From UHGV virus genome UHGV-1526745: DNA of 57,022 bases; one strand, given 5' to 3'. A model generated the notes under the pieces. That model saw nothing but the letters and a program-made list of their open reading frames with translations. It was not told the DNA's origin and did no database searches. Shown here piece after piece: positions 32,370-36,771 of this stretch (position 1 is the stretch's first letter; each line of letters begins with the position of its first letter). The translations under genes and the position numbers were made by a program. The DNA is from a virus.

Positions 32370-32567
32370 TTACAAATCACCAACCTTGCGCCAGTATCTA
32401 TGATTAACCATCGTGATAACTTCTTTCGCTGTCATAGGTAAAAATGGCTCATGCCACCGATCAAGACTACCGAGGCGCATCAAAACGTGCTCACCTTCGA
32501 GGCGGTAATAAGCTCGCGTAGCCAATGACTGATAAACGCCATCATATTCATGGTCGCTATTTCCCAT
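32370..32567 (-). CDS. hypothetical protein (65 aa)
   Basis: Track ORF in Q-to-holin accessory block. Confidence 0.35.
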   Translation of the reverse strand: MGNSDHEYDGVYQSLATRAYYRLEGEHVLMRLGSLDRWHEPFLPMTAKEVITMVNHRYWRKVGDL

Positions 32568-32799
32568 TTTTACGCTCCTTAATGGCTCGCCTGATTTGCT
32601 CTGCCGTAGCGTCGAAGAAAGCGATAAACACAGTCACAGGCCAAAAAGGAATCTCAAGTCCACCATGTTCGGCACCGCTAAACTTAATAAAACATGACAT
32701 CAGGATCGCGCCAGCGATATAAAGCAAAACAGTCACAGCAATAAGGCATTCAATCATAATCATCGTCCTCGTCGTCATGTTCAGCCATGAAATCATCAA
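32557..32799 (-). CDS. hypothetical membrane protein (80 aa)
   Basis: Track ORF; two hydrophobic segments. Confidence 0.4.
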   Translation of the reverse strand: MMISWLNMTTRTMIMIECLIAVTVLLYIAGAILMSCFIKFSGAEHGGLEIPFWPVTVFIAFFDATAEQIRRAIKERKNGK

Positions 32800-33004
32800 C
32801 GTCGCGGTAAGTTATCGGCGGGATGTATTCGAAATCATCAGAATCAAGACCAAGCGTCCTGCTGTCGCCATCGTCATCAATCGTATTCATCCCTAACTCA
32901 CCGAAAGGACCGTATCCAATGTGGCCCAGGTATTCGCAACCAGTCGTAAAGCCAGGGTATTCACCTTTACACCTGATTTTGTATACCTTATTTGATGCGC
33001 TCAA
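32750..33004 (-). CDS. hypothetical acidic protein (84 aa)
   Basis: Track ORF; C-terminus HDDEDDDYD. Confidence 0.4.
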   Translation of the reverse strand: MSASNKVYKIRCKGEYPGFTTGCEYLGHIGYGPFGELGMNTIDDDGDSRTLGLDSDDFEYIPPITYRDVDDFMAEHDDEDDDYD

Positions 33005-33311
33005 TTTTAATTCCCCCTTCTTCTCCTTCAGTCATTTTATATTCTGCCACTAGTTCAGCTCCAACCAATCCCACATCAGCATTAGCTATGCCAGGGAACG
33101 CCAGATAGGCAAAAATAAGGCTTTTAATTCTATTCAGGTCTTCAAGATGGTCTGCATTAAAAGGCGGTTCAGATACGTGAAAGCATTTAACGTGCGCATC
33201 GTCTTCAGTAGCTACACGGAAACATACGCCACGTTCACCTGCGAATTGTCCAATTTCTTTATCTTCTGGAAAATTGCCACGAAAAACCTTAACGCTGATA
33301 AACTTAGACAT
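32988..33311 (-). CDS. hypothetical protein (107 aa)
   Basis: Track ORF, co-oriented. Confidence 0.4.
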   Translation of the reverse strand: MSKFISVKVFRGNFPEDKEIGQFAGERGVCFRVATEDDAHVKCFHVSEPPFNADHLEDLNRIKSLIFAYLAFPGIANADVGLVGAELVAEYKMTEGEEGGIKIERIK

Positions 33312-33334
33312 TTATTATTCCCCTTCGTAATAAA

Positions 33335-33703
33335 TTAAAACTCCGCACCAGGTAAGCTACGCGCTTTATTTATAACATCTTGTTTTAACAATAATAGTGA
33401 GTGATAATGCATGTTAAACATGCTGCAAAGTGGCGTTTCACTATTTTCTGACTTAATTTTGAATAACTGGTTTGCAGTAAAAATCATGTCGTCGTCTGTT
33501 ATGTATAACCAGTCTCCGCGCTTGCCAACTACAACATGAGATTTTCCCCAACTGTCTTTAAATTCATAATCGCAGAAGGCATCACCTTTAGGCACTTCAA
33601 CAAAACAGCACGCAATGAATTTATCGCTTTTCATGATTAAACCCTTCTGGCTTGATGGGGTCATTTGCCCCACTGGTTCGCATATCTTCCGTGAAAGTAA
33701 CAT
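33335..33703 (-). CDS. hypothetical protein
   Basis: Track ORF; true start may be internal (MKSDKF...). Confidence 0.4.
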   Translation of the reverse strand: MLLSRKICEPVGQMTPSSQKGLIMKSDKFIACCFVEVPKGDAFCDYEFKDSWGKSHVVVGKRGDWLYITDDDMIFTANQLFKIKSENSETPLCSMFNMHYHSLLLLKQDVINKARSLPGAEF

Positions 33704-33706
33704 TAA

Positions 33707-33958
33707 TCAGAAAACACCTTTATAATCGACAGTGTATTTTGCTACTAATTTCCATTCACAATAGTTTTCCATGTCGCGCGGTTGCCAGCCTTTCATGCCT
33801 ACCGCACTCCGCGCACCGTGACGACGATAATCATCGTTATAGTCAGCTATGCACCACGGCTGAAGTACAAACATATAATTGGCCTCGTTAACCAGGATCG
33901 CCATCTGCTTTCCTGTTGCCTTATCTTTCGCCCGGAAATAACTTACCCTGATTTTCAT
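33707..33958 (-). CDS. hypothetical protein (83 aa)
   Basis: Track ORF. Confidence 0.4.
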   Translation of the reverse strand: MKIRVSYFRAKDKATGKQMAILVNEANYMFVLQPWCIADYNDDYRRHGARSAVGMKGWQPRDMENYCEWKLVAKYTVDYKGVF

Positions 33959-34169
33959 TTTTAATTACCTCAATCAACATTTCTTCTTCCAGGTTAGCCG
34001 GACGTTTACGAAATATCCCGGCAAAAACCAGATCGTCGAGTAGGTCTTTACGCTTAAATAACCACTCCTTCATTACCATCCCGTCGTCGCTGCGATATAC
34101 AACGCCGTTTTTCAAAAAATAAAAAGTGTGGGTATTCGTCTGAAGGTATAGATCTTCGTAAACGTCCAT
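33921..34169 (-). CDS. hypothetical protein
   Basis: Internal ATG (MDVYEDLY...) chosen so gene abuts upstream ORF without overlap. Confidence 0.35.
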   Translation of the reverse strand: MDVYEDLYLQTNTHTFYFLKNGVVYRSDDGMVMKEWLFKRKDLLDDLVFAGIFRKRPANLEEEMLIEVIKNENQGKLFPGER

Positions 34170-34173
34170 GATA

Positions 34174-34957: not shown

Positions 34958-35153
34958 CTTTCATTCTGGCAAGCTGGTCGATGTTCATCGTGTAGCCGCC
35001 ATCGGAGAAAAGCAATTCCGCCGCTGCGCGACGAAAAGCAATATCATCGTGGTTGCGTGTCCATGTAGCGATCACAACGCGTTTCCCGTTAGTGGCGAAC
35101 ATAGACAATTCATTATCAACTACGTCGATAGCCTGCCAGATTTTTAGCTCCAT
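34923..35153 (-). CDS. hypothetical protein (76 aa)
   Basis: Track ORF. Confidence 0.4.
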   Translation of the reverse strand: MELKIWQAIDVVDNELSMFATNGKRVVIATWTRNHDDIAFRRAAAELLFSDGGYTMNIDQLARMKDEKLVDSYTTA

Positions 35154-35509
35154 GATTTACCCCCGTAAATTTTGAATAATTCCCGTGCCTCCTGATCTCC
35201 AAATATCTTCATATGCAGGTCATGCAGTCGTCGCATTGTGCGGAAGCGCGGTCTAAATTCCTGACTTCGTTTAATGTATTTACCGCCAATTGAATAAATA
35301 TGCCCGTATGCATACCATCTGTTTCCTACCCATATGTCATATTCTTTGCCTTCGTAATTAAATTTGATTGTTAGCTCCCCGAATTCCATTATTAACCCTT
35401 TGTCGAGGATGTCATTAAGCATTTCGTCCCATTCTTTCAGGAATGGTTGCTGATAAAAACCGAAAAGCGTATTTGCAGCGTGGCAAAGGTAATCAATGAT
35501 TATTTGCAT
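35144..35509 (-). CDS. hypothetical protein (121 aa)
   Basis: Track ORF. Confidence 0.4.
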   Translation of the reverse strand: MQIIIDYLCHAANTLFGFYQQPFLKEWDEMLNDILDKGLIMEFGELTIKFNYEGKEYDIWVGNRWYAYGHIYSIGGKYIKRSQEFRPRFRTMRRLHDLHMKIFGDQEARELFKIYGGKSWS

Positions 35510-35513
35510 ATTA

Positions 35514-35729
35514 TCACCACATCATATAATAAACGTTATCGTTAGCTACTTCGTCGGCTCGTTCTTGTGTTAATAGCGGCGCACTTTCCATAAAAGCATC
35601 AAAATAATGCCACTTATAAACAAGCATACGCGCCCATTTGCGGCGCTGGCGCTTATTGTGTCGCAGATCATCAAAAGCCTTTAACGCTTTGTCATACGCC
35701 CTTACCAGGCGTTTACGGTTACTTTTCAT
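35514..35729 (-). CDS. hypothetical basic protein (71 aa)
   Basis: Track ORF. Confidence 0.4.
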   Translation of the reverse strand: MKSNRKRLVRAYDKALKAFDDLRHNKRQRRKWARMLVYKWHYFDAFMESAPLLTQERADEVANDNVYYMMW

Positions 35730-35934
35730 TTTTCACCCTTCCTATTTCCTTGATCTCAATATTGCGCAACCGGACGTCGCACGGCGTTTCAGATTTACCA
35801 GTAAGCGCCAGCGTCAGGTTTTCAGGTGTCGTGTAAAGAATTATCTCTTTACCAGTGCTAAATTTAATTTCTATGCGGATCTCGTTTTCATCACCGCACA
35901 ATACGCGGCTAATTGACAGGCCAGCTTTTTTCAT
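35719..35934 (-). CDS. hypothetical protein (71 aa)
   Basis: Track ORF. Confidence 0.4.
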   Translation of the reverse strand: MKKAGLSISRVLCGDENEIRIEIKFSTGKEIILYTTPENLTLALTGKSETPCDVRLRNIEIKEIGRVKNEK

Positions 35935-35962
35935 TGCTCAACAAACCTTAAAATCTGTATTG

Positions 35963-36247
35963 CTAGTAAATATCACACTTTATTGCGAATACCTTCACCG
36001 GATCAGGGCCGAATAGTGGATGTTGAATCAACTTGATTTCGTACCCCATGTAAGGCAATACGATAATCCGGTCTTTCTCATCATCCGATGGATAACCCCA
36101 TTTAATGATTAATCTTGTGTACTCCCGCCCCTCCAGGCGTTTACGCCAGTATTCATTGTAAAGCCGGTATTCCTCAACCTTCTTCCCCGCCCGGATAGCG
36201 TGGAAGTATTCTCCTTTTAAATTCAAATGCAGGTGTTTATTTGCCAT
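35963..36247 (-). CDS. ASCH/DUF3850-like protein
   Basis: MANKHLHLNLKGEYFHAIRAGKKVEEYR matches ASCH-type pattern (recalled). Confidence 0.5.
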   Translation of the reverse strand: MANKHLHLNLKGEYFHAIRAGKKVEEYRLYNEYWRKRLEGREYTRLIIKWGYPSDDEKDRIIVLPYMGYEIKLIQHPLFGPDPVKVFAIKCDIY

Positions 36248-36584
36248 CACTATCACCCTTAAAATATTGCTCAAGCGCACGTTTGACGTTCATTTCACGC
36301 TGATAATTGTTATCGCCGTAGATTGCGGCTGCCGATACGTGATCGATAATTTGCTGTAATAAATCAGGATGAATTTTTATTTTTTCATCAAGGACAATGC
36401 GCTCTGGTTCTTGCGCTACGGCGTTATCTTCAATAATTTCTATCTCACCACTACCACCGCATCGCGGACAAACAAACTTATCGCCTTGATACAGAAGGAG
36501 GCCGCAGCCTTTTTCAGTCTTAACAACCATGCCGTCGTCGTCGCAGTTTTCGCAATATAACCAACCGATATTAATCATTTTCAT
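36237..36584 (-). CDS. hypothetical Cys-rich protein (zinc-ribbon-like)
   Basis: Internal ATG after AAGGGG RBS; CENC...CPRC motifs. Confidence 0.4.
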   Translation of the reverse strand: MKMINIGWLYCENCDDDGMVVKTEKGCGLLLYQGDKFVCPRCGGSGEIEIIEDNAVAQEPERIVLDEKIKIHPDLLQQIIDHVSAAAIYGDNNYQREMNVKRALEQYFKGDSDGK

Positions 36585-36771
36585 TGTCGCCCCTTTTATA
36601 GATATGCACTGGCTTAACAGGGATGGCGGGCAATTCGCCATCATTTAACGCGCTTGCCATACCCAATATTAAGCGCGCTTCAGCACCAGTGACTTTTTTT
36701 ACAACATGCGCCGCCTGTTTTATCTTCGAATAAGATAACGGCAAACTGATCGTTTATTTCCAGTTTATCCA

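Follow-up and report, generated by a model that had tools for sequence, protein, structure and literature searches.

In phages of the lambda family, the signals of the late switch are found immediately behind the gene of the antiterminator Q. All six comparators used in this work (lambda, P22, phi80, SEN22, Eho49, and a phage encoding Stx2c, a type of Shiga toxin [Stx]) have their late promoter, PR′, in an intergenic gap after Q, and its −35 hexamer starts 39 to 46 nucleotides (nt) past the Q stop codon. The records of P22 and phi80 carry explicit annotations of the promoter, the Q-utilization (qut) or Q-binding site, the transcription start, and the terminator. In lambda, the hexamer AACGAT is a sigma70-dependent pause signal of PR′. 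In Stx phages, the stx genes follow PR′ and the terminator tR′, often in the company of tRNA genes, and are dependent on Q. Here, we analyzed UHGV-1526745, a virus genome sequence of 57,022 nt (referred to as the window), in which Q is separated from the holin gene by a 4.4-kb array of small genes and a conserved noncoding element directly precedes the holin gene. All features described below are on the minus strand, and coordinates are those of the window.

Relatives of the window are the mEpimmI temperate coliphages, which were reported in 2025 by Negrete-Mendez et al. (PMC11893012) to be Nus dependent and non-lambdoid and to possess the N-like antiterminator Gp17 as well as three nut sites. 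About half of their genes are flexible, and the group was reported to match lambdoid phages in frequency in human fecal samples (PMC11893012). Judging from its text, that paper makes no mention of a late promoter, a qut site, or a gene array between Q and the holin gene.

The window is syntenic with mEp021-type genomes (ninG, rusA, Q, array, HP1-type holin, lysozyme, and Rz) and highly similar to them in nucleotide sequence, which places it in the mEpimmI group. The block containing the array matched seven phage records (mEp010, mEp013, mEp021, mEp044, mEp515, mEp554, and MagusPhagus) at 85 to 93% DNA identity with patchy coverage, and prophages carrying it were found, with the same range of identity and again with patchy coverage, in 35 of 5,426 complete Escherichia coli genomes. 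Three sets of sequences were used for comparison: 16 genomes (the window and 15 relatives) for the gene-by-gene analysis from the Q stop codon to the holin start, 32 genomes for the length of this gap, and 59 genomes for variants of the −35 region. In addition, 43 IMG/VR contigs that carry the core motif of the element were retrieved.

Results

No intergenic space follows a Q gene of the lambda family

The Q gene (36772 to 37494) encodes a protein of 240 amino acids (aa) that matched Pfam Antiterm (PF03589; E = 1.6e-29) and PHROG 127 (E = 7e-79). In tblastn comparisons extending over 99% of its length, the protein was 34.9% identical to lambda Q, with corresponding values of 34% for P22 gp23 and 36.6% for SEN22 Q. 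Judged by these alignments, the window encodes a lambda-family Q despite the non-lambdoid label of its group; the lambdoid setting assumed in the preliminary description of the window thus holds for this protein but not for the phage group as described in PMC11893012. The protein is larger than lambda Q (207 aa) and contains extra CxxC zinc-finger motifs.

Among the relatives, Q proteins are 84 to 96% identical, and in all 15 of those examined the Q stop codon overlaps the next start codon, leaving no intergenic space. What follows is not the same gene throughout: it is o00 in most genomes, o06 in mEp021, and yet another gene in mEp044. Because of this overlap and of the differing downstream gene, no conserved qut site can adjoin Q in mEpimmI phages. 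A simple promoter and terminator scan of the transcribed strand from 36237 to 36772 found neither a promoter-like nor a terminator-like site. A PR′ next to Q was rejected on the grounds of the overlapping codons and the varying gene behind them, and the layout in which PR′ and qut stand directly downstream of Q is not seen in the window.

A conserved element before the holin gene resembles a late promoter unit

Hardly any variation was seen among the 16 genomes in the last 88 nt before the holin ATG (32265 to 32352), regardless of the gene upstream. Their mean divergence is 4.6%, compared with a synonymous divergence (dS) of 0.23 for the holin gene, and the variable positions are concentrated in the loop of a terminator. 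On the transcribed strand, the noncoding element (32265 to 32363 with the −35 position) reads AAACAAATAGAT (a conserved spacer), the −10 hexamer TAAAAT (32335 to 32340), ATTTCC, TAACAATGCGAAATTGTAATT, and GCCCGGCCACGCGCCGGGTTTTT, followed by a Shine-Dalgarno sequence and the ATG. Both the −10 hexamer and a −10-like repeat, AACAAT (32322 to 32327), located 7 nt past it, are invariant in the 16 genomes. About 20 nt beyond AACAAT lies the terminator, which is strong and consists of a stem (32289 to 32307; folding energy of −21.3 kcal/mol; z score of −2.5) followed by a T-tract (32284 to 32288). It corresponds to TERM_5 of the mEp021 record; t5 is listed among the experimentally demonstrated terminators (PMC11893012). 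The first gene after the element (32064 to 32264) encodes a class II holin of 66 aa (Pfam PF16080; E = 2.9e-14) that is 92 to 100% identical across relatives, and genes for lysozyme and an Rz-type spanin are located downstream of it.

The order of these motifs was then compared with that of characterized late promoters. The element runs TAAAAT, ATTTCC, TAACAATGCGAAAT, and terminator, and the SEN22 counterpart runs TAATAT, CATTTC, TAACAGTAGAAAT, and terminator. In phi80, the corresponding series is TAGATT, CATCTC, TAACGCTGGGAAT, and terminator, and in lambda and P22 it is TAAATT, TGACTC, and AACGAT, the last of these 6 nt past their −10 hexamers. AACAAT of the element is in the same place as the lambda pause signal and, at the sequence level, qualifies as a candidate pause element. 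The compactness of such a unit has a precedent in P22, where the annotated Plate, +1, and tR′ span 94 nt. When all 113,980 window positions were scored against four qut regions, the element came out as the joint top scorer (z = 4.6).

The position of the element is equally conserved. It lies 79 to 90 nt before the holin ATG in 43 of 43 IMG/VR contigs, and in the 16 contigs with Q inside the fetched DNA, Q is 3.0 to 6.7 kb away from it. The element occurs once per genome in 33 of the 5,426 E. coli genomes. In 45 of the 59 genomes, TTGTAG, TTGTGG, or a similar −35 hexamer is located exactly 17 nt upstream of TAAAAT, and the conserved spacer between the two, AAACAAAyAGAT, is in the position of a candidate Q-binding element. 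From its layout, conservation, and terminator, we infer that the holin-proximal element is probably a Q-dependent late promoter PR′ with qut and tR′.

Several observations weigh against this assignment, which rests on sequence resemblance and conservation. At the −35 position, the window has TCGCGC (32358 to 32363), with no extended −10, and this variant is found in 14 of the 59 genomes, including that of MagusPhagus, a deposited phage genome. Over 32358 to 32369, the window variant looks like a 12-nt insertion that has displaced the −35-like TTG: in the window, 29 nt separate TTGTAA from TAAAAT, but in most relatives there are only 17 nt between TTGTAG and TAAAAT. The candidate PR′ was not called by a simple sigma-70 scan. 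Its similarity score is tied with that of one unrelated site, and comparisons with single phages rank it anywhere from 1st to 1165th; moreover, a sequence of the window's size would by chance contain the strict motif TAAAWT-N5-8-AACRAT 0.5 times. Outside the mEpimmI group, the element was not found in the phage collection, and because of this confinement there is no independent lineage that would link it to Q. A comparison of the two upstream variants of the element with the two subtypes of Q showed no correspondence between them and speaks neither for nor against the assignment.

A second identity for part of the element was considered and rejected: the hairpin ACAAT-GCGAA-ATTGT could be read as a boxB-like nut site, but a frequent T-to-C variant destroys one of its pairs with no compensatory change, and there is no boxA ahead of it.

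The array is most likely transcribed together with Q

With the candidate PR′ and tR′ located downstream of the array, the array is therefore most likely cotranscribed with Q as a set of delayed-early genes. We put at roughly 60% the probability that it forms the distal, flexible portion of the rightward delayed-early operon in a mEpimmI temperate coliphage rather than late cargo. An early placement fits the homologues of two array genes, those of o03 in the early-left region of Stx phages and those of o09 in virulent phages (see below).

The opposite timing would follow if PR′ and qut were located at the end of Q or just behind it. The array would then be expressed late by Q-modified polymerase, as stx is, and the holin-proximal terminator would merely be an internal one that is read through. 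The array does lie between Q and the lysis genes, which is the stx position in Stx phages, and the candidate PR′ of the window lacks a good −35. In addition, gp41 of mEp021, the homologue of o10, has been found in virions, an observation that fits late expression just as well as the early timing favored here. This explanation is nevertheless difficult to reconcile with the overlap of the Q stop codon with the next gene in the 15 relatives, with the exchange of that gene next to highly similar Q proteins, with the lack of promoter-like and terminator-like sites between 36237 and 36772, and with the intergenic PR′ of all six lambda-family comparators. It also leaves the extreme conservation of the −10, the discriminator, and the AACAAT part of the element unexplained. 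We consider it unlikely.

The preliminary description had likened the block to the toxin cargo of other phages. Stx phages do share with the window the presence of extra genes between Q and the holin gene that vary among relatives. The analogy breaks down over the order of the parts, since stx-type cargo is downstream of PR′/tR′ and the best PR′/qut/tR′ candidate here is downstream of the block. Furthermore, the whole window is devoid of tRNA genes, Rfam gave no match within 31000 to 40000, and no toxin or known effector family was matched by array proteins.

The array is a collinear mosaic of genes under purifying selection

Between the Q stop codon (36772) and the stop of the last open reading frame (ORF) (32370), there are 16 intact co-oriented ORFs, o01 to o16, of 65 to 121 aa, plus a remnant, o00. 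The genes overlap or lie a few bases apart, with only three gaps of more than 20 nt, and most are preceded by a Shine-Dalgarno sequence. PHROG families, all of unknown function, were matched by 14 of the 16 array genes and by o00. Comparison with orthologues gave ratios of nonsynonymous to synonymous substitution rates (dN/dS) of 0.06 to 0.37 for all 16 intact genes, indicative of purifying selection. The array ORFs are real genes under selection. The unusually long run of small genes noted earlier between Q and the lysis genes was thus confirmed, and so were its AT-rich parts, with a GC content of 0.36 to 0.37 at 33200 to 33650, around o12, versus 0.456 for the window. The earlier count of about fifteen ORFs of 60 to 135 aa needed adjustment to the 16 genes and one remnant given above, the upper length having resulted from an over-long ORF call.

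Across the 32 genomes, the gap between Q and the holin gene varies from 2.0 kb in mEp021 to 6.8 kb in strain M1/5. In the gene-by-gene comparison of 16 genomes, the gap contained 8 to 28 genes from about 26 families, whose relative order is always the same. Five genes (o06, o07, o09, o10, and o11) were found in every one of these genomes and another three (o04, o05, and o12) in 14 or 15, while o01, o02, o03, o08, and o13 to o16 behave as cassettes found in 6 to 13 genomes. Extra genes of the relatives are for the most part inserted between o11 and o12. The array is a collinear mosaic in which backbone genes and flexible ones are combined. Hence, the view of the block as variable cargo stood for its cassettes but not for the universal and near-universal genes, which are core genes.

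None of the 17 array proteins gave an above-threshold match in Pfam, NCBIfam, or PADLOC, the last of which covers defense systems, and no Nin family of Pfam was found among the array genes. Nine extra families from the relatives had no Pfam match and matched only PHROGs of unknown function. Sequence and profile searches of the PDB with o01, o02, o05, o10, o13, and o14 returned nothing significant. These searches lend no support to the anti-defense, DNA-mimic, or host-takeover roles proposed earlier, which are a reasonable guess from position and gene size alone.

Could the five universal genes be essential, for example, as a virion-associated protein with assembly or DNA-handling partners, with only the flanking cassettes being dispensable? 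They are present in 16 of 16 genomes, lie contiguously, make up most of the minimal eight-gene array of mEp021, and are under strong purifying selection (dN/dS, 0.06 to 0.16). One product, gp41 of mEp021, was detected by mass spectrometry in CsCl-purified virions, and its gene was kept in all 48 genomes analyzed (PMC11893012). On the other hand, none of the five showed a match to families involved in morphogenesis or replication, confidence in the gp41 model is low, the published hint of a RegA-like protein was not reproduced (see below), and universality within one closely related group is no proof of essentiality. An essential core is a possibility that we regard as somewhat doubtful. It is compatible with the delayed-early timing and differs from it only in what the core genes do. 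The preliminary description had named conserved, essential late genes with defined morphogenetic roles as the finding that would speak against a cargo block; no morphogenetic role is defined for any array gene, although gp41/o10 is in virions and five genes are universal.

Presence or absence of cassettes at fixed positions would also be expected of autonomous morons, that is, array genes with their own promoters and terminators that are expressed from the prophage and benefit the lysogen through exclusion or conversion. The lower-GC segment at o12, the small membrane protein encoded by o15, a type common among exclusion factors, and terminator-like hairpins within the array, in the window as well as in relatives, point in the same direction. 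In the window, two such hairpins are located inside coding sequences, at 34875 to 34894 in o07 and at 35016 to 35036 in o06; in several relatives, ARNold-predicted terminators are annotated inside the array, one of them within mEp554_55, apparently the o07 homologue. However, promoter-like sites are not enriched in the array (10 found versus 12.2 expected), the packing of the genes leaves only the three larger gaps mentioned above, all genes have a single orientation, and no known defense or exclusion family was matched. Autonomous morons are thus a quite improbable explanation. If the hairpins inside o06 and o07 were functional, expression of the array would depend on antitermination.

Individual genes of the array

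Directly after Q, o00 (36571 to 36772) is what a frameshift has left of a 67-aa gene located behind Q in most relatives. One base of its ATG also belongs to the Q stop codon, PHROG 35000 matches its C-terminal frame, and its family is present in 14 of the 16 genomes by tblastn. The frame breaks at an A7 run (36694 to 36700), where UMNK88 reads AAGAAA and has an intact gene of 67 aa. The frameshift could reflect a genuine pseudogene or a homopolymer sequencing error.

The proximal cassettes include two proteins singled out in the preliminary description. The first, o01 (36237 to 36584), is an acidic protein of 115 aa that is present in 8 of 16 genomes (dN/dS, 0.18). Its N terminus does have the CxxC...CxxC motif of a zinc ribbon, while family matches were only weak (DnaJ_CXXCXGXG, E = 0.015; RpoM, E = 0.099). 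The second, o02 (35963 to 36280), is a basic protein of about 94 to 105 aa present in 13 genomes (PHROG 625; E = 1.4e-36), for which an ASCH/DUF3850-like (PUA-like) fold is predicted. Against Pfam ASCH it scored 17.1 bits, below the cutoff of 21.2. Its homologues are widespread, and several sources call them ASCH, DUF3850, or RNA-binding proteins; at E < 0.01, 8 of 38 matched ASCH and 3 of 38 matched DUF3850. AlphaFold models were made for o02 and o10 only. For o02, the model had a predicted local distance difference test (pLDDT) score of 86.8, and a Foldseek search of the PDB with it gave ASCH or ASCH-like structures as the top 11 hits and as 14 of the top 15, with probabilities of up to 0.98, template modeling (TM) scores of 0.5 to 0.58, E values of about 0.03, and identities of 10 to 20%. 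The model would place o02 in the fold class of small ASCH/PUA-like proteins such as the ac4C amidohydrolase YqfB, the ribonuclease ZmASCH, and PH0355, from which it differs in its subthreshold Pfam score, its modest TM scores, and its low identity. Thus, the earlier ASCH/DUF3850 label for o02 was borne out by the predicted fold but not by Pfam, and the protein is best called ASCH-like rather than a proven ASCH member.

Next in order are o03 (35719 to 35934; 71 aa; 6 genomes; PHROG 1222), o04 (35514 to 35729; 71 aa; very basic, with an isoelectric point of 10; 15 genomes; PHROG 8758), and o05 (35144 to 35509; 121 aa; 15 genomes; PHROG 16975). Homologues of o03, with about 53% identity, are found in Dhillonvirus and in the early-left ea22/DUF551 accessory region of Stx phages. 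The o05 family is broad, consisting of stand-alone proteins of about 100 to 130 aa, and an exhaustive HMMER search retrieved 188 cluster representatives at E ≤ 0.001; its family profile matched nothing in the PDB or Pfam.

The universal genes begin with o06 (34923 to 35153; 76 aa; dN/dS, 0.11), which is gp38 of mEp021, the gene directly after Q in that phage, and o07 (34679 to 34957; 92 aa; dN/dS, 0.06), in which the hairpin described above runs from 34894 to 34875. A variable cassette, o08 (34404 to 34682; 92 aa; 7 genomes), is located between o07 and o09 (34174 to 34401; 75 aa; PHROG 5009). Homologues of o09, with about 40% identity, occur in virulent rV5-like phages. Then come o10 (33921 to 34169; 82 aa) and o11 (33707 to 33958; 83 aa; PHROG 38609), and in relatives 0 to 1.5 kb of extra genes is inserted after o11.

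The mEp021 homologue of o10, gp41, is annotated as a virion structural protein, and the virion protein gene noted as "mislocated" upstream of the lysis region (PMC11893012) corresponds to o10 in the window. Homologues of o10 were found in E. coli only, with at least 68% identity, and are confined to this phage group. Its family profile had no match in the PDB even at E ≤ 10. A RegA-like translational repressor was suggested for gp41 (PMC11893012). This resemblance to RegA of T4/RB69 was not reproduced by profile or fold searches with o10, RegA being absent from the 50 best fold matches, although the AlphaFold model (pLDDT, 64), which had no PDB match, is too poor to exclude it.

The distal part of the array starts with its most AT-rich gene, o12 (33335 to 33634; 99 aa; GC content, 0.37; 14 genomes), which is divergent between genomes (dN/dS, 0.24), and o13 (32988 to 33311; 107 aa; 13 genomes; PHROG 23107). 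The next gene, o14 (32750 to 33004; 84 aa), has a TTG start codon and a strong Shine-Dalgarno sequence. Its N-terminal half is rich in Gly and aromatic residues and its C-terminal half is acidic, with 19 Asp/Glu in 44 residues; the acidic tail remarked on earlier, for which DNA mimicry had been considered possible, was confirmed with a net charge of −17 over these last 44 residues and is conserved in homologues, all of which are restricted to this phage group. No homologue of known function was found for o14. The product of o15 (32557 to 32778; PHROG 10061), a small membrane protein of about 66 to 73 aa, had been described as having two transmembrane segments; one strong hydrophobic segment was recognized, and the second is weaker. 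The last array gene, o16 (32370 to 32567; 65 aa), belongs to a family present in one to three tandem copies beside the holin-proximal element in several relatives (L004, L007, L012, L015, and others). In a database protein, P0217, the N-terminal half of o14 is joined to the C-terminal part of o16, and this joint, as judged from the sequence, implies a recombination event that deleted o15.

Early-region signals upstream of Q

A conventional ninF/ninG/rusA segment is also located upstream of Q. In front of ninG, at a distance of about 1.4 kb from the Q start codon and just downstream of a cytosine methyltransferase gene, there is a nutR2-like site (38903 to 38936) consisting of a boxA-like sequence, TGCTCTTTAA, and then a hairpin, ACGCTGAAATGCGT, with an A-rich loop. 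nutR2 was placed at the same location by PMC11893012. A terminator-like hairpin (38986 to 39021) precedes the boxA-like sequence. The best sigma70-like promoter of the early region, TTGACT-17-TATATT at 46638 to 46666, has 10 of 12 matches and is a candidate PR-type early rightward promoter.

In one relative, E. coli STEC308 (L006), HNH endonuclease genes are inserted around ninG/rusA, upstream of Q (10125 to 10601 and from 11623 onward), and the window is without them. Public records labeled as Campylobacter phages (MW057783.1, CJLB-4; MG0656xx) were found to contain a lambda Q/NinI region or genes of rV5-like E. coli phages, which suggests that these are mislabeled or contaminating sequences.

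Discussion

These results amount to a well-supported description of the array together with one testable proposal on its regulation. According to this proposal, transcription would start at a PR-like early promoter and become termination resistant through the N-like Gp17 system, for which the nutR2-like site upstream of Q may serve. The polymerase would then pass through ninG, rusA, and Q and, with no intergenic break, through the 16 translationally packed small genes until it reaches the compact conserved unit directly upstream of the holin gene, with its putative late promoter, Q-utilization site, and tR′. Q made from the same early transcript would load on RNA polymerase starting at the late promoter and carry it past tR′ into the lysis and structural genes. 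The array itself would supply small proteins, either soluble or in the membrane, both ahead of late gene expression and in its course. They would be encoded by a backbone comprising the five universal genes and the three near-universal ones, with one backbone product found in virions, and by cassettes that are present or absent at fixed positions. The flexible genes would most likely modulate functions of the host or of competitors.

Compared with the late switch of lambda and P22, the locus has the same kind of Q protein (34 to 35% identical) and the same series of a −10 hexamer, a discriminator of 6 to 7 nt, AACAAT (AACGAT in lambda and P22), and, about 20 nt past this repeat, an intrinsic terminator. 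In compactness, the element equals the annotated P22 unit, and holin, endolysin, and spanin genes likewise follow it directly. The locus differs in the distance of the element from Q, which is 4.4 kb in the window and 2.0 to 6.8 kb in the group versus 40 to 70 nt, in a −35 that is weak or absent in the window variant, in an expected leader of only about 43 nt (lambda, 194 nt; P22, about 58 nt), and in the additional zinc-finger motifs and greater length of Q. The order of Q, gene array, and candidate PR′/tR′ beside the holin gene is a variant of the lambda-type late switch and not a new mechanism.

By analogy, the array resembles a second nin-type region placed after Q. Like the lambda nin region, it consists of short, overlapping, co-oriented ORFs, mostly of unknown function, that form a mosaic among relatives and would be transcribed by N-antiterminated polymerase. 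Unlike that region, it is downstream of Q rather than between the replication genes and Q, and it has no Nin family of Pfam.

A more far-reaching possibility, to which we give little credence at present, is that the late switch has been split in this group, with Q in its usual place and PR′/qut/tR′ moved to the holin gene. This would have created, at the end of the early operon, a slot of 2 to 7 kb that serves as the main exchange site of the group (about 26 families in 16 genomes), and the genes in it would form a distinct timing class, expressed with Q shortly ahead of the lysis and assembly genes. Among them would then be at least one new counter-defense or host-takeover effector, with o14, o02, o15, and the o05 family as candidates.

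If the delayed-early reading of the array is correct, a lambda-type Q system would operate over a distance of kilobases between the Q gene and its target site, and the gap between them would be an exchange slot for small early genes. In the annotation of prophages, a location between Q and the lysis genes would then no longer automatically mean Q-dependent cargo, which bears on predicting when such genes are expressed, including toxin-like cargo elsewhere. The slot would also offer a search ground for new phage effectors, as it contains about 26 uncharacterized families, some of which also occur in virulent rV5-like phages, in Dhillonvirus, or in temperate Stx phages.

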